Below are positions 21,723 through 58,898 of a DNA stretch of 64,000 bases, piece by piece. The notes under the pieces were generated by a model. It searched no databases. It was not told the DNA's origin and saw only the letters and a program-made list of their open reading frames with translations. Numbering within the stretch: position 1 is the stretch's first letter; the number at the start of each line of letters is the position of its first letter. Position numbers and translations under genes: made by a program. The stretch is from a virus: IMG/VR virus record IMGVR_UViG_3300045988_080648. One strand, 5' to 3'.

Positions 21723-22036
21723 ACTGTAAAAGCGGGTAATATATCTGTTAATTACAATGCCGTTCTGTTCAGGAATGGGCAGAATTATCATCGAGCAAAA
21801 TCGGTGAAAGCCCTATAGAGGGTAATACCGAGGTAATAGAAGAAATTAAAGAATCTTCTACACCGTACAGCATAGAGAATGAAACTAATAAATAGTTGAA
21901 CTAGATTATTTTCATTAGAATATAAATTCTCCACGAGTGTTCGATACCCCAACTGAAATAAGTGGGTAAAAATTTATGCGGGGCTTATTAGTAATAGTAA
22001 GAAGTATAGATAAAAAGCTATACGATAACAAGACCG
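21723..22036 (+). mobile_element. ORF-less group I-type intron (about 314 nt) interrupting the helicase Walker A codon boundary G|K. The 5' exon ends in T and the intron ends in G (omega-G) at 22036.
   Basis: Splicing in silico joins ASTGFG to KSRIGLNCIKTVLKHFPQYRVLIIVPTETLQKQW, giving GFGKS plus motif Ia. The 3' part of the intron shares blocks CACGAGTG(T/C)(T/C)CGA(T/C)AC and ATAGATAAAAAGCT(A/G)TA(C/T)GATAACAA with the introns at 45780-45909 and 48510-48625. Confidence 0.55.
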
Positions 22037-23194
22037 AAATCCAGAATAGGACTAAATTGTATTAAAACAGTGCTAAAACACTTTCCACAATATCGAGTAC
22101 TAATAATTGTGCCAACAGAAACTTTACAAAAACAATGGTGTGGTTATATAGATTCTAATGGACTAGGATTAAATTGTGATGTACAAATAATAAACACTGT
22201 AATAAAACATCCTGCCAAATATGATCTTTTAGTACTGGATGAAGCGCATAGATATGCAGCTGAGACTTTTGTAAGATTATTTGAAGTAGTAAAATACCAA
22301 TTTATCTTAGGTCTTACAGCTACTTTTGAGCGTCTTGATGGAAGAGATAAAATATTAGCAAAATACTGTCCAGTAATTGATACTATTGATATTAATACTT
22401 GTCTTGAAAATGGTTGGGTTAGCCCATATAAAGAATATCTAGTCTTAGTAAATGTTGATGATTTAGAAGAATATGAAAAAATAAATAAAGAATTCATTTC
22501 TCATTTTGAATTCTTCGGATTCTCTTGGGAGTTAGTTAATAAATTAGCTGGTCCTATGGGTTGGCGAAATAAATTGCTCCTAAGAGATTCTATGTGTAGT
22601 GACCCTGACAAGAAATCTGAAGTACTACAAAATATAAATTATCATGCTATCAGATTTTGGGCTACTATGCATGAGAAAAAAGCTTTTATTAATAATCATC
22701 CAAAGAAAATTGAAATAGTAAAGAAAATTATAGAAGCTAGAAAGGATAAAAAAATAATAACTTTTGCTAATAATATTAAAATGGCAGAAAAAATTCCTAA
22801 TGCTACTGTATATTCTAGTAGAACTTCTAAGAAAAGAAGTGCTACAGCTATTGAAGATTTTAACTCTGGAAAGATAACTTTATTATCTACAGTAAAAAAA
22901 GCTGATGAAGGACTTGATGTAAAAGGTCTTTCTGTAGCTATTATATTTGGATTAGATAGTTCAATTACTAGAGCTTGTCAACGGAGAGGAAGATCAATCC
23001 GATTTGAAAAAGGTAAGACAGCAGAGATATTCAATATAGTATTAAATAGGACTCAAGAAACTAAGTGGTTTTATGATTCTCATAAAGGAGATTCTTTTAT
23101 AACTATAGACGAATCAGAATTGGATAAAGTATTACAAGGTAAAGACTTTACTCCAGGTGAAAAGATAGTTCCTAAATTTGATTTTAGATTCTGA
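22037..23194 (+). CDS. SF2 helicase, exon 2. Motifs Ia IIVPTETL, II VLDEAHRY, III GLTATFER and VI QRRGRSIR.
   Basis: ORF track 22070-23194 extended 5' to the in-frame splice acceptor at 22037. Confidence 0.65.
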   Translation, partial: KSRIGLNCIKTVLKHFPQYRVLIIVPTETLQKQWCGYIDSNGLGLNCDVQIINTVIKHPAKYDLLVLDEAHRYAAETFVRLFEVVKYQFILGLTATFERLDGRDKILAKYCPVIDTIDINTCLENGWVSPYKEYLVLVNVDDLEEYEKINKEFISHFEFFGFSWELVNKLAGPMGWRNKLLLRDSMCSDPDKKSEVLQNINYHAIRFWATMHEKKAFINNHPKKIEIVKKIIEARKDKKIITFANNIKMAEKIPNATVYSSRTSKKRSATAIEDFNSGKITLLSTVKKADEGLDVKGLSVAIIFGLDSSITRACQRRGRSIRFEKGKTAEIFNIVLNRTQETKWFYDSHKGDSFITIDESELDKVLQGKDFTPGEKIVPKFDFRF

Positions 23195-23272
23195 ATCTAT
23201 GTATTAATATAGCTCTGAGAAGAGATTAACTTAATTACAGTATGGAAGACTTTTAATTATCTGAATTACTGT

Positions 23273-23884
23273 ATGTTTGATTTAAACATTGATGAAGAAA
23301 TAACAATTTTAGAAAAATATAATATTACTCCTACTGAATTGTTTGTTGTTAAAGCTATAAATGCTTATATAGAAGATTATTCAGAAGATTATCTTCGTAG
23401 ATATTTAGCTATTGATAAAAAGTATGTAGGAAGTTTTATAGATGTACTCAAATCTTTACAAGATAAAGGTCTTATCCTTAAAAGTTATAAAATTATTCCA
23501 GGAATGAAACTAGTTCCTGAAGAAATACCATTTAATAAAAACTTCTTAAAATGTTTAGCTAAGAGTTCTTTTGAAATGGGAAAAGAACTTAGAGAACATT
23601 ATCCTAGATTTAGAAATATTAATGGATGCTTAACTAGTATGCTAGGTGTTTCTAAAAAGTTTAATAGTCTTGAAGATGCTTATAGAACTTATGGAAAGAA
23701 AATTCATTGGAATGAAGAACTTCATAAAAAGATTATTGATTTACTAGATTGGGAAGCTAATACTGATAATGGTATTATTAATTATAGCTTAGCTACATTT
23801 ATTGTAGATGAAAAATGGGAAGATCTTGAAGCTTTAAAAAATGGAGATTCAGGTATGAATTATAATTCAATCACCACTCTGTGA
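23273..23884 (+). CDS. hypothetical protein (203 aa)
   Basis: ORF track. Confidence 0.5.
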   Translation: MFDLNIDEEITILEKYNITPTELFVVKAINAYIEDYSEDYLRRYLAIDKKYVGSFIDVLKSLQDKGLILKSYKIIPGMKLVPEEIPFNKNFLKCLAKSSFEMGKELREHYPRFRNINGCLTSMLGVSKKFNSLEDAYRTYGKKIHWNEELHKKIIDLLDWEANTDNGIINYSLATFIVDEKWEDLEALKNGDSGMNYNSITTL

Positions 23885-24963
23885 GTTTAGAAAGTTTTAA
23901 ACGTTCGGTAGAGCTTGGTAGACAAGGATTTAATCAAGGATTTAGTATGGGTCTTCCTAAATTGGAAGAATTAATAGGAGGTATTACTAAAAGTACCATG
24001 ACTCTCTTATTTGCGAGTTCAGGACAAGGTAAAAGTTCATGCGTATTATATTCTTATATATATGCTCCTTTAAAAGAGCATTTAGAAGATAATAAATTAA
24101 AAATTATTTTCTTTGCTCTTGAGATGAAAGAAGACTTTATTATAGCTAAATTATTAAGTACTTATTTATATGATATCTATCATATTGTTGTAACTGCTAA
24201 ACAAATATTATCTATAGGTAAAGATTATATTTTACCTGACGATTTATATAAGTATGTACAACTAGGATATGATTGGCTAGAAAAAGTATATAAAGTACTA
24301 ACTATATACGAAGGCTCTTTTAATTCTGATAGGCTCATAAAAGTTACAATGGAAGAGCTTAAAAAAGAAGGAGAATTTATAGAGAATAAATATATTCCGA
24401 AAGACCCTGAAAAAGTAATACTTTCAGTAACTGACCATGTTGGATTGATTCAGCCATCTAATGGAAGGAATAGAAAAGGAGAAATTGATGATTATACTAA
24501 TAAATTAGTTATTATTAGAAATAAAACAGGATTATCTCCAATTATTGTTATGCAATCCAATAGAGCAGTGGCTAACATGGAAAGAAAAAAGAATGAAGCT
24601 TTCATGGAGCCAATGGTTGAGGATATTAAGGAAACGTCCACTGTTTCAGAGAATTCTGAGATTATTTTAGCTGTATATAATCCTCAAGTTGATAAAAGAA
24701 CAACTTATAGAGGTTATCAAGTTAAAGAAATGGGTTATAGATTTCGAAGTATTCTTGTACTAAAGTCAAGATATGGAGAAAATCAAGTAGCTGATTGCTG
24801 TTTCTTTGACGGAGCAGTAAATAAGTGGATGGAAATGCCTAAGCCAGAAGAAATCTTTGATTATTCTAGATATCGAGCTACAAATAACAGTTCAACAGAT
24901 AATATAATAAAGAATGAAGATAAAGATGGAAAAGTGAAAAATAAATTAGACTATAGTTTATGA
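23881..24963 (+). CDS. DnaB-like replicative helicase, RecA-like C-terminal domain (Walker A ASSGQGKSS, H1a IFFALEM)
   Basis: ORF track. Motif spacing typical of DnaB-family C-terminal domains. Confidence 0.6.
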   Translation: MSLESFKRSVELGRQGFNQGFSMGLPKLEELIGGITKSTMTLLFASSGQGKSSCVLYSYIYAPLKEHLEDNKLKIIFFALEMKEDFIIAKLLSTYLYDIYHIVVTAKQILSIGKDYILPDDLYKYVQLGYDWLEKVYKVLTIYEGSFNSDRLIKVTMEELKKEGEFIENKYIPKDPEKVILSVTDHVGLIQPSNGRNRKGEIDDYTNKLVIIRNKTGLSPIIVMQSNRAVANMERKKNEAFMEPMVEDIKETSTVSENSEIILAVYNPQVDKRTTYRGYQVKEMGYRFRSILVLKSRYGENQVADCCFFDGAVNKWMEMPKPEEIFDYSRYRATNNSSTDNIIKNEDKDGKVKNKLDYSL

Positions 24964-26304: not shown

Positions 26305-26316
26305 TAATATAGCAAT

Positions 26317-27087: not shown

Positions 27088-27110
27088 TAATTATAAAGTA
27101 AGTAGTTTTT

Positions 27111-28121: not shown

Positions 28122-28167
28122 TTAGAATCTGAACACTGCTATTAGAATAACATATAAAAACGGCGAT

Positions 28168-35675: not shown

Positions 35676-37445
35676 ATGTTATTTATGGTAATAAAGAGAG
35701 ACGGAAGTAAAGAAGAATTTAACAGAAACAAAATTAGAGATGCTGTACTAAAGGCTTTTGGAGTTACTCAAAACTCTAGTAAGACAATGGATGAAGATAT
35801 TTACAGAGCAGTTACTGAGATAACTAATTCTGTAGTAGAGACTGAAGATCAATCTATTGAGGATATTCAAGATCAAATTGAAGAACTCTTAATGGATTTA
35901 GGATATTATAGCGTGGCTAAAAAATATATTCTATATCGTAAAGAACGTGAAGATATTAGAAATCATGCTACTAGGGATATTGAATTTATTCATAATTTTG
36001 TAAAATCTGATAATACTGCTAATGCTACTATTGATGATAATAGTAATGTAGGAACTAAAGGTATTGGAGTATTAAACGCTGAAATACATAAAGTCGATAA
36101 TAAACTTACTAATACAGAATGGTGGGAAAGTTTTGTAAAGAAGAGAGATCCTAACTTTAATATAAAAGTTATGAGGAATGACTTTAAAACTATTTTGTAT
36201 CCTCATGACTCATCTTCTCAAGTAGGAGAACCATATTGTATGGCAGCTTCTATGTATCCTTTCTTATTGTCTGGATTAGAGAAATTAGGAGGTAAATCAG
36301 CCGTCCCAAAGAACCTTGATTCATTCTGTGGTATTTATGTAAATCTAAATTTTGCATTAGCCTCTGAAATTAAAGGAGCAGTAGCTACTCCTGAGTTTCT
36401 GATGTATATGGATTATTTCTGTAGAAAAGAATGGGGAAATAATTATTATCTCAAACCAAGTGTAAAAATAACTACAGACTATTGTATAAAACAGAAAACT
36501 ATTGGTAGTCAAATTGATCAGTATTTCCAACAGGTAACCTATTCCATTAATCAAATAGCGGGATCTAGAGGAATGCAGTCTCCATTTACAAATTTTTCAT
36601 TCTTCGATAAATATTTCTTTGAAGGTATGTTTGGAGAATTTGTATTTCCAGACGGGACAAAGCCAGAGTGGAATTCTACTAATTGGTTACAAAAGCGTTA
36701 TTTACATTGGTTAAATCAAGAAAGATTAAAATGTATCTTAACATTTCCTGTATGTAGCTATGCTTGCTTAACAGATGAGGAAGGTAATTTTAAAGATTTA
36801 GATACTTTCAATTTTATATGCAGTGAATATGCTCAAGGAAATTCTTTCTTTACTTATCTATCTCGTAGTGTAGATAGCTTAAGTTCATGTTGCCGTTTAC
36901 AAAATGCAGTACAAGAAAATACATTTAATACTACTAATGGTCAAATAGGTGTAATGACTGGTAGTAAGAATGTAATCACTCTTAATTTAAATAGAATTAT
37001 TCAGGATTGGCAGCATACTTGGTCTGATTATAAAGACCATATTGATGTTAACACCAATAAGTGTTGTTTCCCAGTAGATTGGATTACACATAAAGACTTC
37101 CAAGAAGGAATTAAGAAATATCTAGAAAATATTCTTGAAAGAGTTTATTTGTATCAGTATGCTTATAACGACTTAATGCATTGGTGCAAAGACCATCATT
37201 TATATGCTGCTTATGATGCTGGTTTTATTAATCTTGATAAACAGTATTTAACTATTGGAATTAATGGCTTAAATCAAGCTGCTGAATACTTAGGAATGGA
37301 ATGTAATAATAATATTTATTATAAGACATTCTGTAGATTGATATTCAGCACTATAAAAGAACAGAATAAGAAACATAAAACTAAAACAGCTCAATTTAAT
37401 ACTGAACAAGTGCCTAGACGTGTGGGCACTATAAATCTCTTTTAA
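35676..37445 (+). CDS. nrdD: anaerobic ribonucleoside-triphosphate reductase NrdD, exon 1. It has an ATP-cone at the N-terminus (VIKRDGSKEEFNRNKIRDAVLKAFG). The 3' boundary is uncertain because the ORF reads into intron 1 until the TAA at 37443-37445.
   Basis: ORF track. ATP-cone signature. The continuation with a Zn-ribbon is in exons 2 and 3. Confidence 0.7.
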   Translation: MLFMVIKRDGSKEEFNRNKIRDAVLKAFGVTQNSSKTMDEDIYRAVTEITNSVVETEDQSIEDIQDQIEELLMDLGYYSVAKKYILYRKEREDIRNHATRDIEFIHNFVKSDNTANATIDDNSNVGTKGIGVLNAEIHKVDNKLTNTEWWESFVKKRDPNFNIKVMRNDFKTILYPHDSSSQVGEPYCMAASMYPFLLSGLEKLGGKSAVPKNLDSFCGIYVNLNFALASEIKGAVATPEFLMYMDYFCRKEWGNNYYLKPSVKITTDYCIKQKTIGSQIDQYFQQVTYSINQIAGSRGMQSPFTNFSFFDKYFFEGMFGEFVFPDGTKPEWNSTNWLQKRYLHWLNQERLKCILTFPVCSYACLTDEEGNFKDLDTFNFICSEYAQGNSFFTYLSRSVDSLSSCCRLQNAVQENTFNTTNGQIGVMTGSKNVITLNLNRIIQDWQHTWSDYKDHIDVNTNKCCFPVDWITHKDFQEGIKKYLENILERVYLYQYAYNDLMHWCKDHHLYAAYDAGFINLDKQYLTIGINGLNQAAEYLGMECNNNIYYKTFCRLIFSTIKEQNKKHKTKTAQFNTEQVPRRVGTINLF

Positions 37446-37753
37446 TTGACTCGAAACTCCTTAAATTAAGGACAACGAGGGGCAAGCAATAATTATTATA
37501 ATTATGGGCAGCCTGAGAGACTAAATAAAGAGAATTTTAAATAAATTTATTTAAAATATGCAATAGTCCGAACTCTATGGTAACATAGAGAGAGAAAATC
37601 GAAGAATTTTCTCCGTTAATAATATAATATACAAAATAATTTTGATTCCTAAGAATTATTTTACAAATATAGTTCATAAAGATTTATATTATATTATTAA
37701 TCATCCTTCGCCAATAGAGGAATTAAATAAAATATTAGAAATTCCTTCTATAG
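37431..37753 (+). mobile_element. ORF-less group I-type intron 1 in nrdD. Boundaries are approximate (plus or minus 40 nt). The proposed omega-G is the G of TAG at 37753.
   Basis: The coding potential is lost for about 320 nt between two nrdD reading-frame segments. It contains AGTCCGAAC / TATGGTAACATAGAG blocks that also occur in the polA introns at 57517 and 58843. Confidence 0.45.
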
Positions 37754-38159
37754 AAGGAGCGTAACAGAATGGCAGAAAGCGCTTCAGTAAAACTTTATAA
37801 TAGAGATAAAGCTGATGGTTATTGGATTCCTACAGATACTAATCTGTATGCTAGTTATATATTTAAACCTAATGATACACATATAAGTATACTTGATAAA
37901 ATTATACTTCATAGTTCTGAGTTCGCTGCTGATGAATTAGATGGAGGTTCTGCTTGTCATCTTAATTTATCTGAACATTTAAGTCAGAAACAATATGAGT
38001 ATTTACTTAAATTTATGGCTAAAGTAGGTTGTAAATATGTTACTTTTAATATTCCTAATTGTGAATGTGATGAGTGTCATTTTATAGCAAAACAGCCATT
38101 TAGTAAATGTCCTAAATGTGGTAGTACTCATGTAAGTCTATGGGATAGGATTATTGGGT
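37754..38159 (+). CDS. nrdD: NrdD exon 2 (Zn-ribbon CECDEC...CPKCG; ends ...LWDRIIG plus the first T of the glycyl-radical Tyr codon)
   Basis: ORF track 37769-38161, with the frame open from 37754. Splicing at 38159 and 39215 restores RIIGY. Confidence 0.6.
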
Positions 38160-39214
38160 GAATATAAACGCCCCACATAATAGTAATATTATGTAGTAAA
38201 CGCAGAATATGCTGGAAACCCCTTAGAGCCTAAGTATACTTGAAATATTTTCAAGGATGAACAAGTCTTAGGATTGGGCAATCAGCAGACATATAAATTG
38301 TTAATTTATGTTAAAGTGTTAAGATTTATACAAGTCTTGTATATACTTAACATATATAAAATTTATGGGTCTCAGAGACTACCAATGCGCAACCTATGGG
38401 TTGATAGTATAGTCCACTCCCTTATTATTAACATAATTATTTAACAATATGAGAAAAATAACAGAAGAACGCTTTTGTGAAGTATGTGGAGTATCATCAA
38501 AATTTAAAAAAGTTAGTTTTAATAAACTTTCTGGAAAAATACTATGTGAAAAACATAGGGAACAATTTAGAAGATTTGGGGAATTTAAAGATACTAATTC
38601 AAGAGGAGTATTTGATGATAATGAAATTAGATTAAAAGATAATTTTGCGGAAATAGATACTTATGATTCCCATGGAAATATTATGGAAACATTTATTCTA
38701 GATATAGATGATGTTCCAAAATTAAAGGGTCATAAATGGAGAACTGTTTATAAAAATAATAAACCTTATTTATTTACAGGAAACCAGAAAAAAGAACGTA
38801 TCTATTTTCATAGGTTGGTACTTCCTACTGATAAACAAGTTGACCATATTAGTGGAGATACTCATGATAATAGAAAATGTAATCTTAGAGAAGTAACTAT
38901 TCAAGAAAATATGTTAAACCTACAAAAGAAATCTAATAATACTTCGGGTATTCGAGGTGTATCTTTTGATAAAAAACGGAATAGGTGGAAAACTGATTTT
39001 ACTTTTCAGAAACAACGTTATTATTTAATGAATAGAGACTTAAAAGAAGAAGCCGTTTATCAAAGGTATCTTTGTGAGAAATTAGTATTAAAAAATTTTC
39101 GGAATGATGCTCTATATAATTCTTATATTGATAAAATTTCAGAGGAACGTAAAGCTGAAATAAAAGAATATGTTATTAATAAATTAAATATCTCGAAAGA
39201 GAGGGTATAAAAGG
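38160..39214 (+). mobile_element. group I-type intron 2 in nrdD (about 1055 nt) carrying an HNH-AP2 homing endonuclease gene. The 5' exon ends in T and the intron ends in G.
   Basis: A GC-richer structured 5' part (AAACGCCCCACATAA...) is followed by the HEG. The exon 2 / exon 3 junction reconstitutes the glycyl-radical motif RIIGY. Confidence 0.55.
38449..39210 (+). CDS. intron-encoded HNH homing endonuclease with a C-terminal AP2 DNA-binding domain
   Basis: ORF track. HNH motif VDHISGDTHDNRKCNLREVTIQENM. AP2-like SGIRGVSFDKKRNRWKTDFTFQKQRYY. Confidence 0.7.
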   Translation: MRKITEERFCEVCGVSSKFKKVSFNKLSGKILCEKHREQFRRFGEFKDTNSRGVFDDNEIRLKDNFAEIDTYDSHGNIMETFILDIDDVPKLKGHKWRTVYKNNKPYLFTGNQKKERIYFHRLVLPTDKQVDHISGDTHDNRKCNLREVTIQENMLNLQKKSNNTSGIRGVSFDKKRNRWKTDFTFQKQRYYLMNRDLKEEAVYQRYLCEKLVLKNFRNDALYNSYIDKISEERKAEIKEYVINKLNISKERV

Positions 39215-39315: not shown

Positions 39316-39575
39316 AAAGAATATTAAAATTTGAAGCAGAATGGTGTGGACAATGTAAAGCTTTAGCACCTATTTTAAAAAGAGTATTAGAAAATCATAC
39401 TGATATTACTTTAACTACAGTAGATATAGAAACAGAGGAAGAGACTACTCTTAAATATAATATTAGAAATCTTCCAACTCTTGTATTTATAAAAGATGAT
39501 ATAGAAGTAGGAAGAACTTCTGGAGTTTTAACTGCCGATATGCTTGAGAATAAAATTAAAGAGTTCTATGCTTAA
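39312..39575 (+). CDS. thioredoxin/glutaredoxin-like protein (active site WCGQC)
   Basis: ORF track. CxxC redox motif. Adjacent to nrdD and nrdG. Confidence 0.65.
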   Translation: MKRILKFEAEWCGQCKALAPILKRVLENHTDITLTTVDIETEEETTLKYNIRNLPTLVFIKDDIEVGRTSGVLTADMLENKIKEFYA

Positions 39576-40044
39576 ATATGTTGATACAGCTGTTACTTTT
39601 GCAGAATTTCCTAATGAAATTTCTCTATGTATTAATATTAGTAACTGCAATTGTTTCTGTAATGGTTGCCACTCACCTTATTTGTCAAAAGATATTGGAG
39701 AAATACTATCATTGGAACGACTCCAAGGATTAATTGAATCTAATAAAGGAATTACATTAGTAGGATTTATGGGAGGAGATTCTGATCCAAAAGAAGTAAA
39801 TAAATTAGCTAAATGGGTTAGAGAAAATTATCCTGAATTACATGTAGGATGGTATAGTGGTAAGCAAGAATTAGCTGATAGTGTTATAGATATTAATAAT
39901 TTTGATTTTATTAAACTGGGTTCTTATATGAAACAATTTGGACCATTAAATAATCCGAATACTAATCAAAAATTTTATAAGATAGATAGAAATGCTCATA
40001 CAATGATATGGTGTACTAATATATTTTGGAAGGAGGCTGAATAA
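39544..40044 (+). CDS. nrdG: anaerobic RNR activating enzyme NrdG, radical-SAM (Cys cluster NCNCFCNGC). The likely start is M at about 39567 (MLKYVDTAV...).
   Basis: ORF track. Cysteine motif and size. Follows nrdD. Confidence 0.65.
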   Translation: MRIKLKSSMLKYVDTAVTFAEFPNEISLCINISNCNCFCNGCHSPYLSKDIGEILSLERLQGLIESNKGITLVGFMGGDSDPKEVNKLAKWVRENYPELHVGWYSGKQELADSVIDINNFDFIKLGSYMKQFGPLNNPNTNQKFYKIDRNAHTMIWCTNIFWKEAE

Positions 40045-40056
40045 GCCTCCTTTTTT
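40032..40056 (+). terminator. rho-independent terminator (GGAGGCT loop GAATA AGCCTCC, then TTTTTT)
   Basis: Perfect 7-bp inverted repeat plus T6, directly after the nrdG stop. Confidence 0.75.
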
Positions 40057-40218
40057 GTTTTATGGAGTGTGCAATTTTAAATTATGGTGTAGGAAGTGTT
40101 GATTTAATAACAGTTCCAGATGATATTAATGATGTAGAAGTTTATTTATGTGATGTTCTTGGTTACAGAGAAGATGAAATAGAATTTATGATTAAAGAGG
40201 GTAAAATTAATGTAGAAG

Positions 40219-40614
40219 ATGATAGAGACTAAACGAATAAATAATTTAGAATTTAGGGTCGCTACCTATCTTTTAAAAAATCCTCCTGAAATTAAAGCCT
40301 ATCATATAAATAGATATATGCCTAATTGTTATTATGGTCATGAGTCTGATTTTATAAAAATAGATAATGATTGGTACAGAGACCCAAACTTTTCTTGGCA
40401 TAAAATACATAAAAGCTGCTTTAAAAATTCTGAAACTTGTTATGCTATAGCAAGTTTTGAGTATAATAAACATGAAGGAGTTTATGAGTTTATATGGATA
40501 GGTGAAAGACCTTTAGATTTAACAGAACAAGAAGAAAAAGATTTTAAAGAATTAATTATTTATGGTTTTAATAAATTAAATCATGGAAGTAACGAAGGTA
40601 AGTCAGATTACTGA
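40219..40614 (+). CDS. hypothetical protein (131 aa)
   Basis: ORF track. Confidence 0.45.
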   Translation: MIETKRINNLEFRVATYLLKNPPEIKAYHINRYMPNCYYGHESDFIKIDNDWYRDPNFSWHKIHKSCFKNSETCYAIASFEYNKHEGVYEFIWIGERPLDLTEQEEKDFKELIIYGFNKLNHGSNEGKSDY

Positions 40615-44418: not shown

Positions 44419-45909
44419 AATTAATAAAAATACTCTATTATAAAATATCTTTTAAAAAATTTTGATTTATAGGTGGGCATATATAATAGCTATACATAAA
44501 ATGTATAGTAAAATGAGTAAAATTACAGTACCTGAATCAGATTTAATTCTTATAAAAAAATATTATGAGGAAGATAATAAAAAAGTATCAGAGATAGTAA
44601 GATTATTAAATAATAAATATTCTTCCGGAGTAATTATTACTAGATTAAAAAATCTAGGAATATATCAAAGTACTAGAGGTAAAATACCAGATAATATTGG
44701 TAATAATATTATAGCAGAATATAATAAGGGCAATAGTATAGTAAGTTTGTCTAAACAATTTGGATATTCTACTACTAAAATATCTACATATTTAAAAAAT
44801 AATGATATTATTGTTATAAATAGACAAAATATTATAAATTATGATTTGGATAAAGATATTATACCCTTATATAATCAAGGATATAGCCTTACTAAATTAG
44901 CCGAGATATTTCATACTAATAGAAATAATTTAGCTAAAAAATTAAAAGCTAGAGGAATTGAAATAATCAATCATCAAAATGAAACTAAATTTAATGAACA
45001 TATCTTCGATGTTATAGATACAGAAGATAAGGCTTATTGGTTAGGTTTTATATTTGCTGATGGTTATATTGACAGTAGTCCTTTAGAAAAAAATAAAAAA
45101 TCTAGATACGGTTTTGAAATATCTTTAAAAGGTTCTGATGCTGAGCATCTACATAAATTTAATGAATTTATGGGTCATAATAAAGATAATGTAAAAATTG
45201 GTTATGTAAATTGTAATGGTAAACGTTGTGTTAGATGTAGATGGTATGTAGCGAATAAACACTTATGGAATACCTTAAATAGTCTAGGATGTACTCCTAG
45301 AAAAAGTTTAACACTAAAATTTCCAGAAAAAAGAATTTTTCAAGATATTTCTCTTATAAGACATTTTATTAGAGGATACTTTGATGGTGATGGATGTTTA
45401 AGTTATTGTAAAAGTATTAAAACTTTTTCTCCAATTTGTACATTTTTAGGTACTAAAGAATTTTTATAGGTACTATGTAGTTATTGTGAATTACTAACAG
45501 ATAGAACTATAAATCATAAAAGTAATGAAAATGTATATGAGGTATCTTGTACTCACAATATAGCCAGTAAATTATTACATTATTTATATGATGATGCAAA
45601 TATTTATTTACAAAGAAAATATAATAGAGCAATATTTTTATGGAATGGTTGCCGGTCACTTGAGAAATTAAGTGAATTTTTACAAACCAATATCGGTGAA
45701 GGCTGTGATGCTAATACCGAGATAACTACAGAAACTAAAGAGTCTGTAGCATCGTAGAGCGTAGAACTTGAACCTGAGAAATCAGAATAAAATAGTTCCA
45801 AGAGTGGTTTGCCCTCAGCACATAAAGGTGGAGGTGAATATGTACGCCGAGCTATAGCAAATAAGAAACTATAGAAATACAGATAAAAAGCTGTATGATA
45901 ACAAAACTG
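44419..45909 (+). mobile_element. group I-type intron (about 1.49 kb) in the Dda-like helicase, carrying a LAGLIDADG homing endonuclease gene. The 5' exon ends in T and the intron ends in G (45909).
   Basis: Splicing joins LGGAAGCG to KSLCTSFLLEWINTKGFPVKLCAPTHKAA (Walker A plus motif Ia). The 3' intron blocks are shared with the introns at 21921-22036 and 48510-48625. Confidence 0.6.
44462..45469 (+). CDS. intron-encoded LAGLIDADG homing endonuclease (two LAGLIDADG motifs: LGFIFADGYI and GYFDGDGCL). It ends at an in-frame TAG, and the same frame stays open to 45757 with homologous C-terminal sequence. It may therefore be decaying or need read-through.
   Basis: ORF track. The post-TAG continuation VLCSYCELLTDRTINHKSNENVYEVSCTHNIASKLLHYLYDDANIYLQRKYNRAIF... 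aligns with the C-terminus of the LAGLIDADG protein at 56423. Confidence 0.6.
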   Translation: MIYRWAYIIAIHKMYSKMSKITVPESDLILIKKYYEEDNKKVSEIVRLLNNKYSSGVIITRLKNLGIYQSTRGKIPDNIGNNIIAEYNKGNSIVSLSKQFGYSTTKISTYLKNNDIIVINRQNIINYDLDKDIIPLYNQGYSLTKLAEIFHTNRNNLAKKLKARGIEIINHQNETKFNEHIFDVIDTEDKAYWLGFIFADGYIDSSPLEKNKKSRYGFEISLKGSDAEHLHKFNEFMGHNKDNVKIGYVNCNGKRCVRCRWYVANKHLWNTLNSLGCTPRKSLTLKFPEKRIFQDISLIRHFIRGYFDGDGCLSYCKSIKTFSPICTFLGTKEFL

Positions 45910-47691: not shown

Positions 47692-48625
47692 GAAAAATAT
47701 TTTTAAAATTCCTTGGGACAATCGATAAAATAGCTATATTATAAAATATAATTATCAGATAATTTTATTAATTAATAATTATAATATAGTTATGAGTGAA
47801 TGTAAATATTGTAAAAAAGAATTTATTCCAAATGAGTCTGCTAGACAATTTCCTAAAACATTTTGTTCTTATTCTTGTTATGAACATTGGTTGAAAGAAA
47901 ATAAAGAACCAAATTGTGTATGTGCTTATTGTAAAATTCCTATGTATAGAAAGCCTTCCCAAATTAAAAGAGCTGTGCATGGAGTAACTTGCTCTAAAGA
48001 GTGTGCTAATAAATTAAAAGCTATTTATTATTCTGGAAAAGGTAATCCTCAATATGGATTAATAGGAGATAAAAATGCTTCATTTAAAGGTATAGAAATA
48101 CTAAGTAATTATGGGTATATTCTTGAGTATGCCCCAAATCATCCTTTTCCTCATAATAAAAGCGTAAAGGGTACTAGAGTGCTTCAACATAGATTAATAA
48201 TAGAGCGAAATGCTGATAAATTTGATGATAAGTATTTCATAATCATAAATAATAAGAAATATTTAAAATTAGAATATGAAGTACATCATAAAAACGAAAT
48301 TAAAACAGATAATCGCTTAGAAAATTTACAAATAGTAACAGCTAATGAACATAGGAAAATTCATAATAATACTAAGAAAATTATAAGAGATGAAAAAGGT
48401 CAAATAATCGGCGTCAAAAAATCGGACAAAATCGGGGAAGGCTGTGATGCTAATCCCGAGCTAACTAATTAAATTACGAAAGGTTAATTAGTAGTGTAAC
48501 GCATAGTAGTTGAATAAATATAATACTACCACGAGTGCCCGACACTTATGTGAAAAGATATGCTGAACTATAGCAAATAAGAAGCTATAGAACTATAGGA
48601 TAAAAAGCCTATAGGGTAACAAATG
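47692..48625 (+). mobile_element. group I-type intron in dut (about 930 nt) carrying an HNH endonuclease gene. The 5' exon ends in T and the intron ends in G.
   Basis: Splicing restores motif III as [15 protein letters not shown]. Confidence 0.6.
47792..48472 (+). CDS. intron-encoded HNH endonuclease (Cys-rich Zn-binding N-terminus; HNH motif EVHHKNEIKTDNRLENLQIVTANEHRKIH)
   Basis: ORF track. HNH motif. Confidence 0.65.
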   Translation: MSECKYCKKEFIPNESARQFPKTFCSYSCYEHWLKENKEPNCVCAYCKIPMYRKPSQIKRAVHGVTCSKECANKLKAIYYSGKGNPQYGLIGDKNASFKGIEILSNYGYILEYAPNHPFPHNKSVKGTRVLQHRLIIERNADKFDDKYFIIINNKKYLKLEYEVHHKNEIKTDNRLENLQIVTANEHRKIHNNTKKIIRDEKGQIIGVKKSDKIGEGCDANPELTN

Positions 48626-50586: not shown

Positions 50587-51795
50587 ATGACAAAAAAGGA
50601 AAAATTTATTACTCAATCAATTGAAAAATTTGGTGACAAATTTGATTATTCTAAAGTAACAGATATTAATAATAAAGAAATAGATAAAATTACAATTATA
50701 TGTCCTATACATGGTGAATTTGAGACTACTCCTAAATCATTTTTAATATCTAAATATGGTTGTAAAAAATGTGCTAACCAACAAAAAGGAAAACATTATC
50801 GAACAGATAAAAATAATTTAAGTTCTGTTGATACACATATCCCACATATAGAAAATCCTATTATATCAAAATCTTTAGTTGTGGGTACTGTATACTGTTT
50901 TATTAATAGTATTAATGGTAAAAAATATATTGGAGAAACAGTAAAGAAAGATTATACTGTTAGATTTAATGAACATAGAAGTAAAAGTGAAAGAGGAGTA
51001 GTAACTTATTTCTATAATGCTATCCGAAAATATGGATGGGATGCTTTTAATAAATATATCATATATCAAACTGAACCATATGAAGATACTGAGGAGAATA
51101 GAAAAAAATTAAATGATATTGTAAATAAAAAAGAAATTGAGTTTATTAATAAATACAATACTACAAATCCTAATTTTGGCTATAATTTAACAAAAGGAGG
51201 AGACGGAGTTTTAGGTTACCATTTTTCTAAAGAAACCAAAGAAAAAATGAGTAAATCTCATCAAGGAGAAAAACATTGGAATTATGGTAAAAGAAATGAA
51301 GGTAAATCTAGAGCAATTTTACAATTTGATTTAGATGGAAATTATATAGCAGAGTTCCCATCTATGGCAGAAATTACACGACAATTAGGATATAAAGCTA
51401 ATAATGTATGCAGATGTTGTGATAATTTAATAGGTTCTTATATGGGATATATTTGGGTACGAAAAGATGATTATTATGAAGGCTATATTCAAAAATACAA
51501 ATCAAGAGTAAAATGTAAATCTAATGATAAGGAAGTTTTACAATATACTTTTTTAGGAGATTATGTAGCTTCCTATATAAGCTGTGCAGAAGCAAAAAGA
51601 ACTTTAAAAATGGGATATAGCCCTTCAGGAGCTGCCTCTGGAACTGATTTTTCAGCAGGAGGTTATATATGGATATATAAAAAAGATTTTACAGAAGATT
51701 TATTAAAAGAAAAATTAGAGCTTGTAAAAAGTAGTCGTAATTATAAAAAAATTGTGAGTAATCTTAGACAGGCAGCTTTAATTAATCGTAATTAA
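50587..51795 (+). CDS. free-standing GIY-YIG homing endonuclease (GIY-YIG core VYCFINSINGKKYIGET ... YFYNAIRKYG; NUMOD3-like repeats KEKMSKSHQGEKHW)
   Basis: ORF track. GIY-YIG and NUMOD motifs. Confidence 0.65.
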   Translation: MTKKEKFITQSIEKFGDKFDYSKVTDINNKEIDKITIICPIHGEFETTPKSFLISKYGCKKCANQQKGKHYRTDKNNLSSVDTHIPHIENPIISKSLVVGTVYCFINSINGKKYIGETVKKDYTVRFNEHRSKSERGVVTYFYNAIRKYGWDAFNKYIIYQTEPYEDTEENRKKLNDIVNKKEIEFINKYNTTNPNFGYNLTKGGDGVLGYHFSKETKEKMSKSHQGEKHWNYGKRNEGKSRAILQFDLDGNYIAEFPSMAEITRQLGYKANNVCRCCDNLIGSYMGYIWVRKDDYYEGYIQKYKSRVKCKSNDKEVLQYTFLGDYVASYISCAEAKRTLKMGYSPSGAASGTDFSAGGYIWIYKKDFTEDLLKEKLELVKSSRNYKKIVSNLRQAALINRN

Positions 51796-51807
51796 ACAAT
51801 TATATTA

Positions 51808-52811: not shown

Positions 52812-52812
52812 A

Positions 52813-53449: not shown

Positions 53450-53793
53450 TGATTTATTTTATTATAGAGGATTCTCATTTTGGCTCTCATGTAGAACAAA
53501 TATCTACTGACTTTAATAAATTACGGGAAAATTTTCCTGATAAAGTAATCTATACTACAGATTATATGAATGTAGATGATACTTTATATAATATAGTAGA
53601 TTATTCTAATATGCCGTATAAACCTTATGATGGTACTGAAATAACTAATTGTTACTTATATCGTAATAATTTTTATGAGTGTGATGAAGATTTGCCAGAA
53701 GAATTAGATCCAGATGAATATATGTGTACCTATTATAGAACTTACACAAAAGGTTCTCTAACTTCAACATGGCATAAAGATGGCTGGGAATAA
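53449..53793 (+). CDS. hypothetical protein (114 aa)
   Basis: ORF track. Confidence 0.45.
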   Translation: MIYFIIEDSHFGSHVEQISTDFNKLRENFPDKVIYTTDYMNVDDTLYNIVDYSNMPYKPYDGTEITNCYLYRNNFYECDEDLPEELDPDEYMCTYYRTYTKGSLTSTWHKDGWE

Positions 53794-54604: not shown

Positions 54605-55825
54605 ATGATTTATTTAGTTACCAAGGTTAAAGCTTTATTCAAATCTTCTAAATATGAATGTATTTCTGTAGAAAAAAGTAAAGAAATTATTAATTCTATG
54701 AAAAAAATTAGAGGATTAGATACTGAGACTATGGGATTAAATCCTCATACTAAAGCATTATTAACAGTTCAGATAGGTACTAAAGAAAATCAAGTAGTAA
54801 TTGATTGCACTACTATAAATATTTGGGAATATAAAGATATATTAGAAGATTCCAATATTTTATATATCTTAGCTAATGCTAAATTTGATATCCAATTCTT
54901 CTTTAAACATAACATTATATTATCTAAAGTATGGGATGTAATGTTAGCTGAAAAGATTAGATATTTAGGATATCCTAAAGGTAGTTTCCATGCTGACTTA
55001 AAGACCCTTGAATACAAATACCTTAATAAATATATGGATAAAACTGTTCGAGGTAAAATTACTAAAGTTGGTCTAACTGAAGAAGTAATAGTTTATGCAG
55101 CTAATGATGTAGTAGATTTGGAAGATTTAATGAATGCCCAAATAAAAGCTTTAGAAAAAGAAGAGTTGGTAAAGGCAGTACAATTAGAGAATAGATTTGT
55201 TATTCCATTAGCTTATATGGAATGGTGTGGAGTAAAATTAGACGTAAAAAAATGGAAAGCTAAAATGGTAAAAGATGCTAAACGTTTAAAGATTGCTCTA
55301 ACTAAATTAAATGATTGGGTAGTAAAACATTATGGAAAAGACTCTAGATTTACTAAAGTAGATTTACAAGGAGATTTATTTTTAGGATTTAATACTGACC
55401 CACAGTGTGCTATAAATTGGAATAGTGCAGCTCAAGTAATTCCATTATTCAAAGCTATTGGAATAAATACTTCTACTATAGATAGTAAAACAAGGAAATT
55501 AAAAGATTCTGTAGATGCTAAATTATTAGAGCCTCAGGCTAAGGATTTTGAAATTCTTCCTATTTATCTAGATTATAAAGAAGCTCAAAAAGTATGCTCT
55601 ACTTATGGACAAAACTGGCTAGACCAAATAAATCCTGAAACTGGTAGAATATATACTAAATTTAATCAGTTAGGCACTAATACTGCCAGAATATCTAGTG
55701 GTGGAAAAGATAAAAATGCTCAAATAGAATATGTAAATTTTCTTAATCTTCCAGCAGATCCAGAAACTAGAAGTTGTTTTATCGCAGAGAAAGGTAACTC
55801 TTGGATTTCCATAGACTACTCGGGT
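54605..55825 (+). CDS. polA: family-A DNA polymerase, exon 1 (3'-5' exonuclease motifs LDTETMGL, ANAKFDIQFF, YAANDV; polymerase motif TGRIYTKFNQLGTNTARISS; ends in motif A ...ISIDYSG)
   Basis: ORF track 54605-55834, trimmed to the inferred splice donor. Confidence 0.65.
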
Positions 55826-56146
55826 AAAAAATAAACATATAAACTATAACATTTTTATAGTATATTTTGAATAATCTATCCGTAAATAAATCAGAGGATG
55901 TGTTAAAAATGTTTTATAGTTTATATCATAATGCTCATTATTTTCTAAAAAGAAAATATGAAAAATTTGGCCCCCTTGTAAGGAAACTTACAGGTGAAAA
56001 CCTCGTAAATTCAGTTAATGAACGGGCATTATCAAAGACTGAGCCAAGCCTTATAATAAAGGAAGGTGCAGAGACTAGAAACGAGGAGCCTAAAATAAAT
56101 GATTAAATTTATCATGGCTGAGGTATAGTCCAGCGTGTTTACGTAG
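55826..56146 (+). mobile_element. group I-type intron 1 in polA (about 320 nt). It contains only a 79-aa ORF (55867-56106) with no recognisable endonuclease motif. The 5' exon ends in T and the intron ends in G (the G of TAG).
   Basis: Splicing joins DYSG to QESFIMASISNDKALIHELMEGSGDLHSLTA, which is motif A and its continuation. Confidence 0.5.
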
Positions 56147-56343
56147 CAAGAAAGTTTCATTATGGCTTCTATCTCTAATGATAAAGCTTTAATACATGAA
56201 TTAATGGAAGGAAGTGGAGATCTACATTCTCTAACTGCCTATATGAGTTATCCTGATCAAATACCTAGAGATACAAAAATAACAGAAATTAAAGAAAAGT
56301 ATCACCATCTTAGACAAGAAGCCAAAGGAATAGAATTTGCCAT
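56147..56343 (+). CDS. polA: polA exon 2 (motif B region ...RQEAKGIEFAI)
   Basis: ORF track 56162-56353, with boundaries re-set from the splice-site reasoning. Confidence 0.5.
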
Positions 56344-57606
56344 TAATCCTTAAATTATTGCAATTTTTATTTTGATATAATTCGCTATAAACTATATTAC
56401 TATTAATAAATATTTTAGTAATATGGATATAGAAAAAGAATTAAAAATCAAAAGCTTGTATGAAAAAGATACAAAGATTAGTGAAATTTTAAAGATTTGT
56501 AAATGTAGTAGTGCTACAGTAAATAAAGTAAGAGAAAAATATAATTTACCTAAAAGAAGGAATTCCCCCTCAAAGATTCCTATAAATGAATCTTTAGTAG
56601 TAAAATTATATACCGAAGGAGTAATATTAACTGAAATTACAAAAACTTGTCATTGCAGTACCAACACTGTCTCAGCAATACTAGATAAATATAATATTCC
56701 AAAACGTTCTCAGAGAATAAATAAAAAACCTAATAAGGATTTAAGTAAATTTATGGATTTAACTTCTCCAGAAACTCAATATTGGATAGGATTTATATGT
56801 GCCGATGGCAATATAAATTATAATCCAGAAAAAAGAGCTTATAAAGTTTCTCTATTTAGTAAGGATGAAGAAGTCATAATTAAATTTATAAAATATTTTG
56901 GAGAAAATACAGTTTGTAGAAGTGACAGACCTACAGGTATAAAAGAAGCCTATATATGCTCTAAAGAACTTTGTGAATATTTTATTAATGTATTAAATAT
57001 TACTCCTAATAAGTCTCTTACATTAAATCCTAATATTGAGTATACTAACAATTTTATTTTAGGCTATTTTGATGGAGACGGAAGCATTAGAAACAGTTCA
57101 GAAAAACAAATTAGATACGAGTGTAATATTACTTGTGCTAGTAAAATATTTTTGGATAAAATAAAAACTATACTTGATAAAAATGGTATTTATTCTATTA
57201 TTTATCAACATACTGATTGTAATGCTTACAAAATTAGAATAGATAGAAAAAGTGAATCTGAAAAATTTTATCATTTTTTATACAAAGATGCAGTAGTTTG
57301 TTTATCAAGAAAATTGAAAAACTTTGTGGCACTCTATGGAAACATAGAGAATGAAAAATTGGGTGAATTGCAGGAACTTAAGGAAAATCTGCAGCCAAGC
57401 CAACCTTTAACAAAGTTGGAAGGTTCAACGACTAACTCTTGAAACTTCGTAAGAAGAATATAATAGAGACACGAGTGCCCAACACCTAAACTATAAAGCA
57501 AGGTGATGAAATAGTCTAGCCTATATGGTAACATATAGAGTCTCAGATAAAGAGCTGAGAGTTAATACAAGCGAAATTATGGTGGTGATTTTAACACTAT
57601 TCATCG
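56344..57606 (+). mobile_element. group I-type intron 2 in polA (about 1.26 kb) carrying a LAGLIDADG endonuclease gene. The 5' exon ends in T and the intron ends in G (57606).
   Basis: Splicing yields EFAINKGISIEEAKKIYENYMSGFSGLAKYQEY, the canonical motif B plus downstream helix. The 3' part contains ACACGAGTGCCCAACAC and TATGGTAACATATAGAG blocks shared with other introns. Confidence 0.5.
56423..57442 (+). CDS. intron-encoded LAGLIDADG homing endonuclease (motifs IGFICADGNI and GYFDGDGSI)
   Basis: ORF track. Confidence 0.7.
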   Translation: MDIEKELKIKSLYEKDTKISEILKICKCSSATVNKVREKYNLPKRRNSPSKIPINESLVVKLYTEGVILTEITKTCHCSTNTVSAILDKYNIPKRSQRINKKPNKDLSKFMDLTSPETQYWIGFICADGNINYNPEKRAYKVSLFSKDEEVIIKFIKYFGENTVCRSDRPTGIKEAYICSKELCEYFINVLNITPNKSLTLNPNIEYTNNFILGYFDGDGSIRNSSEKQIRYECNITCASKIFLDKIKTILDKNGIYSIIYQHTDCNAYKIRIDRKSESEKFYHFLYKDAVVCLSRKLKNFVALYGNIENEKLGELQELKENLQPSQPLTKLEGSTTNS

Positions 57607-58042
57607 AAACAAAGGTATCTCTATAGAAGAAGCTAAAAAAATATATGAAAATTATATGTCTGGTTTTTCAGGATTAGCTAAATATCAAGAGTATTGTAGA
57701 AAGATAGTGATGGAAAAAGGCTATATACTTTTAAATCCTATAAGCAAATATAGAGCACATATATATGACTTTGAATCTCTACGTTCAATGCAAGAAAAAA
57801 TGCAAGATAGGGAATTTTGGAAGTATTATAGAGAAATGAAACGAGAATCTCCTAACTGTGATACAGTACAAGAAGTACGAGATTTCTTTAAGAAAAAAGG
57901 TGAATGTGAAAGGAATAGTATAAATTATAGAATACAACACACTGGAGCTTTATGTTATAAAGTAAGTATGATTTATTTCTTTAAATGGATAGTAGAAAAT
58001 AATCTTTTTAATAAGGTTTTAATTACTATTACTCCCTACGAT
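57607..58042 (+). CDS. polA: polA exon 3 (GYILLNP...ERNSINYRIQHTGA...; ends ...ITITPYD immediately before the Glu of motif C)
   Basis: ORF track 57656-58048, with the frame open from 57590. Confidence 0.5.
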
Positions 58043-58898
58043 AAATAATCTTGTCGTAGTAAAACGATGTTAATTGCTTGGAACTCCTAAAGATTTAATT
58101 ACTAAATTATTGAAATAATAAACTAGTAAAAATATTAAATATGATTTTACCTCAGTTAAAAGAAATGGACAATAAGCAGCTTTATAATTTTACAAGAGAA
58201 CAAACTCAAGTATTTTTAACAGGATTGCTAGGTGATGGATGTATATCCACTACAAATAGTGGTAGTTATATTTATACCACAAATTGTAAACATCTTGAAT
58301 ATTTAGAATTTAAAAAGAAATTATTAGGTAAAGGAAATATTAAACTTCAAAAAAGAAATGGCTATCCTATATATACTATGTATGGAGGAGCTTACCCAGA
58401 ATTATATGAGTTTAAAGAATTTACTGTTCAAGATGTTATTGAAAACTTAGATTTACTTGGGTTAGCATTATGGTTTTATGATGATGGCAGCCTTCATAAA
58501 AGAGATTTATATTATAATTTAAATACTCAAAAGTTCCCAAAATATATACAAGAAGGAATTTTTATTCCATGGTTTAATTCCTTAGGCATTAAAGCTAATT
58601 TAAGACATGATACAAAAAGAGGAAAAGAATTGTATTATTTAGGAATTAATAAATATGAAGGAGCTAATATTATTAGTGAAATACTATCACGTTATCCATT
58701 AGATTGTTACTCTTATAAATTATGGAGTTCAGAGACTATCCTTAAATGGAGTAAGCTGCAAGAGCAGGTGAAAAGCATCGATGAAAATCTTACTAATAGG
58801 CAGTTAGCTTATAAGTGGAGATTTTTATAAGATATAGTCCGAACCTATATGAAAGTATAGGAGAATATATGGAATCGATATATTCGTAACAATATATG
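58043..58898 (+). mobile_element. group I-type intron 3 in polA (about 856 nt) carrying a LAGLIDADG endonuclease gene. The 5' exon ends in T and the intron ends in the G of ATG (58898).
   Basis: Splicing yields ...VLITITPYDEINCEVPIEIAEKV..., which aligns to motif C LLQVHDELVLEVP with Tyr in place of His. It contains the ATAGTCCGAACCTATATGAAAGTATAGG block. Confidence 0.5.
58141..58830 (+). CDS. intron-encoded LAGLIDADG homing endonuclease (motifs LTGLLGDGCIS and LWFYDDGSL)
   Basis: ORF track. Confidence 0.65.
   Translation: MILPQLKEMDNKQLYNFTREQTQVFLTGLLGDGCISTTNSGSYIYTTNCKHLEYLEFKKKLLGKGNIKLQKRNGYPIYTMYGGAYPELYEFKEFTVQDVIENLDLLGLALWFYDDGSLHKRDLYYNLNTQKFPKYIQEGIFIPWFNSLGIKANLRHDTKRGKELYYLGINKYEGANIISEILSRYPLDCYSYKLWSSETILKWSKLQEQVKSIDENLTNRQLAYKWRFL

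Follow-up and report, generated by a model that had tools for sequence, protein, structure and literature searches.

Eight predicted group I introns of mixed ancestry in five genes of a crAss-like phage

Eight insertions interrupt five genes in a 64,000-nucleotide (nt) stretch of viral DNA, IMG/VR record IMGVR_UViG_3300045988_080648, which is referred to as the window throughout. The affected genes are those of an SF2 helicase, nrdD (two insertions), a Dda-like helicase, dut and polA (three insertions). Very probably, these insertions are bona fide group I introns that form a heterogeneous set, most of them acquired independently. That group I introns are present had been claimed in the original prediction from the letters of the DNA, and this was borne out by U...G boundaries, P1 pairing, matches to covariance models (our own or RF00028 of Rfam) and intron-less alleles or homologs. 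The same prediction had taken the eight introns for a single family that diversified within this genome, a claim that did not hold. A covariance model and a survey of intron-less alleles, two of the checks that went with it, gave four introns in one model and five intron-less alleles in the closest relative, respectively. The list of open reading frames (ORFs) showed split genes at exactly the positions predicted. Position 21723 is the first base of the first intron and 58898 the last base of the last one, and the introns sum to 6557 nt, or 17.6% of this span.

The window is AT-rich (28.8% G+C), has its long ORFs almost all on the + strand and contains four tRNA genes. Its nearest GenBank record is MT835492.1, an unannotated 121.6-kb phage contig from human faeces that is flagged 'UNVERIFIED' and is ~94% identical across most of the region. 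Judged by the likeness of spliced PolA to the PolA proteins of IAS virus and Bacteroides phage crAss001 (54-57% identity), the window is the module for replication and nucleotide metabolism in a crAss-like phage (order Crassvirales). By its PolA, the genome is nearest to phages of the Beta group/Steigviridae.

Splice junctions and insertion sites

All eight introns are preceded by an exonic T and have G as their final base, and the spliced products gave uninterrupted Pfam matches. Each of the eight junctions was confirmed by an intron-less allele or homolog. MT835492 precisely lacks the introns nrdD-1, Dda, dut, polA-1 and polA-2, with flanks that are 91-96% identical, and these alleles fix the five junctions to the base. 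Spliced polA aligned in one piece to the intron-less polA genes of IAS virus and crAss001 (tblastn). Contiguous tblastn alignments were also obtained for the SF2 junction with the intron-less MT836666, and for the C-terminus of NrdD, including both intron sites, with Lak-A phages and cr116_1. The 3' splice site of the SF2 intron was placed by homology to the 3' end of the Dda intron, by frame and by motif, and the sites of nrdD-2 and polA-3 by continuity of frame and motif. The predicted ligated junctions read GGCTTTGGT↓AAATCCAGA for SF2 and TACGAT↓GAGATTAAT for polA-3 (arrows mark the insertion point here and below).

All eight introns interrupt catalytic motifs. The SF2 and Dda introns split the Walker A motif at GFG↓KS and GCG↓KS, respectively, and the dut intron lies in dUTPase motif 3 (GTIDA↓DY). 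In nrdD the first intron is located in the conserved EQVP↓AES region and the second in the glycyl-radical motif (RIIG↓Y). The three polA introns interrupt polymerase motif A (DYSG↓QE), motif B (AI↓NYG) and motif C (PYD↓E).

A P1 pairing with a U-G wobble is readable from the sequence in 8/8 introns. It is UGGU/GCCG in both SF2 (guide GCCG at 21759-21762) and Dda (guide GCCG at 45651-45654), GACGCU/GGCGUC in dut (guide GGCGUC at 48410-48415) and UGCCAU/GUGGCA in polA-2, where the guide GUGGCA at 57326-57331 is located within the ORF. Outside these four, P1 reads GUGCCU/GGGCAC in nrdD-1 (guide at 37424-37429), GGGU/GCCC in nrdD-2 and polA-1, and CUACGAU/GUCGUAG in polA-3 (guide at 58053-58059). 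The four-base pairings are short and may have arisen by chance. In the splicing reaction proposed for these introns, the guide sequence would pair with the last 4-7 exon bases, with the U-G wobble at the splice site, and an exogenous G would attack at the 5' splice site. The terminal G would then dock in P7 and the exons would be ligated, restoring the reading frame.

Interruptions of this kind might also be left unspliced and mark fragmented pseudogenes, split genes that yield separate polypeptides, or assembly artefacts. Splicing is predicted here from the DNA sequence, the sister record MT835492 carries its UNVERIFIED flag in GenBank, and public annotation of relatives lists the pieces as separate coding sequences (CDSs), for example in polA of cr116_1. 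Nevertheless, we consider this explanation highly improbable. All insertions have group I boundaries, P1 pairing and a conserved catalytic core, and the same elements occur at the same sites in independent assemblies. An indispensable catalytic motif is split each time, so that separate functional polypeptides are implausible. Group II introns, inteins and translational bypass were also considered for the window interruptions and were rejected on boundaries, size and core structure.

Table 1. Introns and endonuclease genes in the window.
Feature	Position	Strand	Description
SF2 helicase intron	21723..22036	+	class A (Twort-like IA2), 314 nt, without ORF
nrdD intron 1 (nrdD-1)	37416..37771	+	356 nt, without ORF, non-class A; RF00028 match
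nrdD intron 2 (nrdD-2)	38160..39214	+	1055 nt, non-class A; HNH ORF 38449-39210
Dda-like SF1 helicase intron	44419..45909	+	class A, 1491 nt; LAGLIDADG ORF 44462-45469
dut intron	47692..48625	+	class A, 934 nt; HNH ORF 47792-48472
polA intron 1 (polA-1)	55826..56146	+	321 nt, non-class A; LAGLIDADG remnant 55867-56106
polA intron 2 (polA-2)	56344..57573	+	class A, 1230 nt; LAGLIDADG ORF 56423-57442
polA intron 3 (polA-3)	58043..58898	+	856 nt, non-class A; LAGLIDADG_2 ORF 58141-58830
free-standing GIY-YIG/NUMOD homing-endonuclease gene, outside introns	50587..51795	+	Pfam NUMOD3, NUMOD1, weak GIY-YIG
HNH endonuclease gene	62449..63076	+	one frameshift, giving two overlapping ORFs; HNH_3 in second ORF

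Class A and the four other introns

The SF2 intron gave no Rfam match even on a short stretch, and the SF2, Dda, dut and polA-2 introns were therefore analysed separately. These four introns are one family in sequence and structure, named class A here. They align with one another and with an extra intron in a DnaB-like gene of MT835492, and the alignment, inspected by eye, covers P1' to P9.1 and contains compensatory changes. Relatives were collected by a degenerate pattern, and more than 119 viral contigs are among the matches listed. Exact copies of the core signature of the class (J7.1/3 to P7') are present in more than 119 other viral contigs, and the core is ~70-75% identical in other crAss-like phages and Prevotella Lak megaphages, and also in phages of Bacillus, Clostridioides, Staphylococcus and Streptococcus.

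Covariation was analysed in 25 diverse class A sequences. In the class A fold, 86.5% of the cells were paired, and the covariation score was 0.556, compared to 0.163 in shuffles (0/500 reached 0.556); with slid partners it was 0.155 or less. P3, P4, P6, P7 and P7.1 were paired to 99-100%, most pairs in P3, P6 and P7.1 showed double changes, and P7 covaried between A-U and G-C at 13:12. P3 and P7 cross and thereby form the group I pseudoknot. An extra stem directly after P7, where introns of subgroup IA2 have the helices P7.1 and P7.2 ahead of the 3' strand of P3, was 99.2% paired, with 4/5 pairs covarying; one such stem is strongly supported, and in some sequences a second hairpin is nested within it.

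Class A membership was tested on all eight introns with a 148-position covariance model of the 3' domain, which was built only from 22 IMG/VR sequences. Scores of 124.5 bits were obtained for dut, 111.9 bits for Dda, 110.9 bits for SF2 and 71.6 bits for polA-2. The matches end on the predicted 3' splice site for SF2 (22036), Dda (45909) and polA-2 (57573), and the dut match runs two bases past it. With filters off, the next best match elsewhere in the window reached 14 bits, nrdD-1 and polA-3 scored 10.9 and 9.3 bits, respectively, and nrdD-2 and polA-1 were not listed at E <= 10. A profile search (nhmmer) based on the class A 3' domain of 79 other contigs gave exactly four window matches (E of 3e-23 to 4.5e-11), including the SF2 intron at E = 9.5e-22. 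Besides ORF-to-ORF similarity, all-against-all BLAST connects only SF2, Dda, dut and polA-2. In sum, these three tests, each independent of the others, concur that 4/8 introns match class A and 4/8 do not. One family of eight is not what the model recovers, since the other four reach no more than 11 bits and match RF00028 instead.

These four, nrdD-1, nrdD-2, polA-1 and polA-3, are other group I types than class A. When short stretches were searched, RF00028 aligned over its full length with nrdD-1 (54.3 bits, E = 8.4e-13) and polA-1 (40.0 bits, E = 5.7e-9), and the 3' part of polA-3 scored 31.1 bits (E = 1.8e-6). The nrdD-2 intron scored 19.8 bits in the window, and its ORF-less allele in MT835492 gave a full-length match of 40.6 bits (E = 3.6e-9). 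The R (CAGAGACUA) and S (AUAGUCC) elements in their classical form are present in each of the four. P3' directly follows P7 in nrdD-1, nrdD-2 and polA-1, with no extra stem between them. The polA-3 intron has two hairpins between P7 and P3', yet no detectable sequence kinship to class A. A ~180 nt extension beyond P9 is present in nrdD-1. The ribozyme core of nrdD-2 occupies 38160-38440, the HNH ORF filling its 3' peripheral region.

BLAST revealed no significant similarity among the four. For nrdD-2 and polA-1, almost no relatives were found by BLAST against GenBank phages, and the covariation evidence is therefore that of class A. The GenBank relatives of nrdD-1 are Lak-B phages only; its core (37468-37592) is 82% identical to an element in these Prevotella phages, e.g. 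MK250020 160977-161098. We noticed that the NrdD alignments of Lak-B3, B5 and B6 stop near query residue 135, close to RIIG↓Y, which suggests that nrdD of these phages may also hold an intron near this site.

The introns of Staphylococcus phage Twort are textbook IA2 ribozymes, and the ribozyme of orf142-I2 has reportedly been crystallised. Twort orf142 holds three introns in one gene (I1, I2 and I3), like polA here. Twort and class A have the same order of elements, namely guide, P2, P3-P6, P7, extra stem, P3', P8 and P7', and both then continue with a GNRA-capped P9, P9.1 and a GUAACAnnnnG tail. From J8/7 across P7, P9 and P9.1 up to the tail, the 3' domain of polA-2 can be superimposed almost completely on that of Twort I2. 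The class A covariance model matched Twort weakly, with 26.6 bits for orf142-I3 (E = 0.0019) and 22.8 bits for I2 (E = 0.014); both matches end exactly at the annotated 3' ends of the introns. The sequence-only nhmmer profile of class A gave no match in Twort 1-50000, and the relationship is therefore distant.

Several differences were also found. Overall identity between class A and Twort is only 37-51%. P7 is mostly GCRUA/UAYGC in class A and GACUA/UAGUC in Twort; polA-2 belongs to class A but has the canonical GACUA/UAGUC P7. A further difference from Twort is the P7.1 hairpin of class A, which is single and conserved and has a UGAAUAAAUAUAAU loop. The genome that hosts class A here is a crAss-like phage of Bacteroidota-type hosts, whereas Twort is a Herelleviridae phage of Firmicutes. 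An IA2 (Twort-like) assignment, which had been named as an example for the whole set, is reasonable for SF2, Dda, dut and polA-2, though only distantly.

Shared blocks, intron turnover and origin

The sequence blocks that had been quoted as common to the introns occur within introns only, on the + strand only and more often than chance predicts. They are neither exon sequence nor low-complexity coincidence, the two outcomes that would have refuted the original prediction. Each block is common to 2-4 introns and none to all eight. The block CACGAGTG... is found in SF2, dut and polA-2, and CACGAGTG...CGAYAC corresponds to P3' together with the junction that follows P7.1. CTATAGCAAATAAGAA, found in Dda and dut, is P9. 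ATAGATAAAAAGCT...GATAACAA occurs in SF2 and Dda, and dut and polA-2 have variants of it; it comprises P9.1 and the 3' tail, and such P9.1 and 3'-tail blocks recur in most listed contigs with a recognisable 3' end. AGTCCGAAC is shared by nrdD-1 and polA-3; it is the 3' strand of P7 plus the following junction and part of the Rfam consensus. TATGGTAACATAGAG, present once in nrdD-1 and in two copies in polA-2, is a GNRA-capped hairpin that forms P9 in nrdD-1 and both P2 and P9 in polA-2; P9 of Twort is almost the same. Hence, the shared blocks are conserved core and peripheral elements of ribozymes, found across phages of several bacterial phyla, and not traces of recent duplication.

It had been proposed that the dispersed repeats drive deletions or inversions. 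The longest exact word between any two introns is only 18 nt, and the introns are therefore poor recombination substrates; extended similarity between introns reaches at best 84% over 50 nt. Since the copies are all direct repeats and lie in essential genes, deletion between any two would be lethal. Save for clean indels, MT835492 and the window are collinear, and no rearrangement bounded by introns was found. The proposal is supported neither by the extent of identity nor by the collinearity of the two genomes. The dut intron also resembles the DnaB intron of MT835492 (89% over 72 nt); mosaicism of the two was considered and rejected, as the P9.1/tail variant is the family consensus.

Comparison with MT835492 documents fast intron turnover between two 94% identical genomes. 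In addition to the five introns named above, the whole GIY-YIG gene and the frameshifted HNH gene are missing from MT835492, as is most of the HNH ORF of nrdD-2. The presence of both a free GIY-YIG gene and a decaying HNH gene in the window, which the original prediction had reported, was confirmed. The SF2, nrdD-2 and polA-3 introns are present in MT835492. Its nrdD-2 copy is near-identical to that of the window apart from two deletions, and its SF2 intron carries a 928-nt LAGLIDADG insertion in the P1 loop. Conversely, MT835492 has a class A intron in the DnaB-like gene, at a site that is empty in the window, an insertion in an AAA gene and, within nrdD, an intein. For the genome pair, the count is ten intron sites plus one intein site, of which only three are shared. 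The nrdD intein lies at 39483-40538 of MT835492 and runs from CFSKDT... to ...THN, followed by C, at the site SSCC↓RLQN; the equivalent site of the window, at ~36890, has no insertion.

Sequence divergence is locally raised beside some of these elements. The 30 nt beside the polA-1 and polA-2 sites are 60-83% identical to MT835492, compared to 93-100% further out, which would fit co-conversion or divergence of the target site. Furthermore, the segment 48628-50426, from dut exon 2 to a ligase gene, is 76% identical to MT835492, compared to 91-96% elsewhere. Gene conversion driven by an endonuclease, or a module swap, are possible causes. The dut intron and the free GIY-YIG gene flank this segment.

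The nearest relatives of the introns were searched among the collected contigs. Among the matches listed, the closest relatives of the dut intron are dUTPase introns of two contigs, L057 and L050 (78-79%), which are inserted at the same codon. After the copies of the sister genome and of contig L066, the SF2 intron is closest, among the matches listed, to an intron of contig L072, which occupies the same Walker A site of an orthologous helicase. For 3/4 class A introns the nearest relative among the matches listed is in another contig, in two cases at an orthologous site, and paralogs from the same genome rank only ~45th. Independent homing therefore better explains most introns, which were probably acquired from other phages.

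A single lineage that diversified within this genome, giving rise to eight copies whose shared blocks drive deletions and inversions, is by comparison very unlikely. Some observations do point in that direction. Four introns form one family, and the Dda intron is an exception to the ranking, its best match being the DnaB intron of MT835492; the two are mutual best matches, with 78% identity overall and 88% over conserved columns. The LAGLIDADG ORFs of Dda and of the SF2 and AAA introns of MT835492 are 65-74% identical in DNA. However, 4/8 introns are not detectable as class A even with filters off, and in-genome class A paralogs stand behind introns of unrelated contigs among the matches listed. 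Together with the short identities and the collinearity described above, these results have already largely refuted the single-lineage reading for the set of eight.

A number of points weigh against a heterogeneous set of functional, mostly independently acquired group I introns. At the gathering threshold, Rfam detected no group I intron in the whole window, and at E <= 10 it detected none in the 39 kb from 21000 to 60000. The blank result is a filter effect, because short stretches with laxer filters do give matches; still, the matches need short stretches, and nrdD-1 alone is above the gathering score (50). P8 and P9 of class A pair poorly, at ~50%, in the MAFFT alignment, which we attribute to misalignment of hairpins that vary in length. 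P4-P6 of polA-3, a region that the ORF occupies, was not confidently placed by minimum-free-energy folding of ORF-deleted constructs. Neighbours, among the matches listed, were ranked by simple identity or BLAST and not by phylogeny. Finally, the splicing of the eight introns is a prediction made from DNA.

Endonucleases, the Walker A site and known systems

Five introns carry homing-endonuclease genes, two of the HNH and three of the LAGLIDADG type; one has a remnant and two, SF2 and nrdD-1, have no endonuclease ORF. Pfam identified an HNH_3 domain in the nrdD-2 and dut ORFs, LAGLIDADG_3 in the polA-2 ORF (E = 8e-16) and, weakly, in the Dda ORF (E = 1e-3), and LAGLIDADG_2 in the polA-3 ORF. 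The polA-1 remnant is the C-terminus of a LAGLIDADG ORF and was seen via a repeat family (D2). Another repeat family (D6) ties 62449-63076 to 38933-39000; this frameshifted HNH gene and the nrdD-2 ORF are paralogs. The endonucleases would presumably cut intron-less alleles of co-infecting relatives, and repair would then copy the intron in.

The ORFs are closely interlaced with the ribozymes. The Dda ORF sits in the P1 loop, the dut HNH ORF extends into P1'-P5, and the polA-3 ORF overlaps the canonical R element (58727) and ends in the S element (58830). HNH and LAGLIDADG ORFs read into the ribozyme core at 48410-48472, 45650-45720, 57326-57442 and 58700-58830, and their common peptide tail ...NIGEGCDAN... 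is translated P3-P4-P5. The Dda ORF has one in-frame TAG (45467-45469), past which the frame stays open into the core with homologous sequence continuing. A related LAGLIDADG ORF, in the AAA-gene insertion of MT835492, also has one in-frame TAG (~5585-5590). TAG terminates 3/60 long ORFs of the window. Recoding or readthrough of the stop codon, which has been described for certain crAss-like phages, may account for the in-frame TAG, or the ORF may be at an early stage of decay; neither the window nor 100 kb of MT835492 yielded a suppressor tRNA.

The SF2, Dda and MT835492 DnaB-like introns are inserted at the identical point and in the identical phase, GGT↓AAR, between G and K of GxxGxGK[S/T] (GIG↓KS in the DnaB-like gene). 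In all three, GCCG or GCCA is located right before P2 and is complementary to (U)GGU. In 8 class A members from IMG/VR, among the matches listed, the 3' exon starts with K[ST], and the 5' exons of L108, L051 and L072 end in G.G. Another 8 class A members among the matches listed are inserted two codons upstream, at G↓xGK[ST].

We tentatively consider that a LAGLIDADG-bearing subset of class A might have moved between the Walker A codons (GGU↓AAR) of unrelated ATPase genes, with the invariant nucleotides of the motif serving as a portable homing site. Such jumps, for which the odds are in our view somewhat below even, might have connected helicases (SF1 Dda-like, SF2 and DnaB-like) with an AAA ATPase and further P-loop NTPases, within and between crAss-like genomes. 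Ectopic spread in this phage lineage would then account for a part of its introns. The agreement of the three introns in insertion point, phase and guide, the 8 plus 8 class A members at or just upstream of K[ST], and the fact that the Dda and DnaB cores are top mutual matches speak for such movement, as does a related insertion right after GGT of GTG↓KT in the AAA ATPase of MT835492. However, the latter lacks its 3' half and is hence not a working intron. Four guide nucleotides are too few to specify a site, and an endonuclease specificity that reaches across genes is hypothetical. The cores of Walker A introns form no single cluster and are interspersed with introns at other sites, and transposition guided by the motif is therefore put forward as a hypothesis. 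The recurrence could also reflect a general bias of homing elements for conserved motifs, as reported for inteins (PMC4760082).

The AAA insertion of MT835492 (4815-5972, class A/LAGLIDADG) starts directly after GGT of the Walker A motif and ends within P7.1. About 20 nt of downstream exon, including the K-T codons, are missing, as is the 3' domain, and no working 3' splice site could be reconstructed. It is either a decayed, gene-disrupting intron or a misassembly. The equivalent site of the window is 6570-6590, in the ORF 6302-7456.

According to Novikova et al. 2016 (PMC4760082), inteins cluster in P-loops and other ATP-binding motifs of replication proteins. Like the introns described here, inteins in that account recur in Walker A of non-orthologous ATPases, but they splice as protein and not as RNA. 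Literature searches on group I introns at P-loops or Walker A motifs yielded papers on inteins only. If true, the movement between Walker A codons would be the RNA-intron counterpart of this clustering and would provide a concrete example of ectopic intron transposition with a protein motif as its guide. The sole lead of wider interest in this analysis is that related introns recur at one Walker A codon boundary in different ATPases.

The original prediction had called the intron density exceptional. The density is high, but this has already been published for crAss-like phages: a 2021 study reported an 'unprecedented density' of group I introns, with up to 14 per genome (PMC7886860). Those phages belong to the same order and likewise have introns in core replication genes together with LAGLIDADG, HNH and GIY-YIG endonucleases. 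There, introns were found via endonuclease domains, mainly in the Delta and Zeta groups, whereas the genome described here is closest to the Beta group/Steigviridae and thus adds an intron-rich genome near these phages. Also in contrast to that study, RNA cores and exact splice sites are given here, and three introns without an intact endonuclease ORF (SF2, nrdD-1 and polA-1) are included.

Phage introns mostly have IA-type cores and are often interrupted by endonuclease ORFs (PMC11878797). The introns of T4 td, nrdB and nrdD and those of Bastillevirinae are likewise located in nucleotide-metabolism or replication genes of virulent phages, and they share endonuclease homing and presence/absence polymorphism among close relatives (PMC11878797). 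T4 has three introns in 169 kb, whereas eight are found here in 37 kb, several per gene, and insertion sites and endonuclease families differ from those of T4 and Bastillevirinae. The crowding of introns is therefore a phenomenon of known kind and leaves the understanding of group I introns unchanged.

The practical gain lies in annotation. Standard annotation misses all eight introns, as does Rfam when run on the whole window; the GenBank record closest to it has no annotation, and RefSeq genomes of relatives split the exon pieces into separate genes. The exact predicted splice sites would give complete sequences for five essential replication proteins from an abundant lineage of gut phages, and the class A model finds introns where Rfam fails. 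In the crAss-like RefSeq genome cr116_1 (NC_055882; 2098-3006 of the extracted stretch), a class A intron is located at a fourth polA site, SINYP↓xQ, where the record has merely an 'endonuclease' CDS between two 'DNA polymerase I' CDSs.

Apart from the introns, the two genomes differ in their tRNA clusters. At 12391-13516 of the window there are Asn, Thr, Ala and Gly tRNA genes, and MT835492 has Asn, Asp, Met, Tyr and Ala at 11783-13885, with indels between the genes relative to the window.

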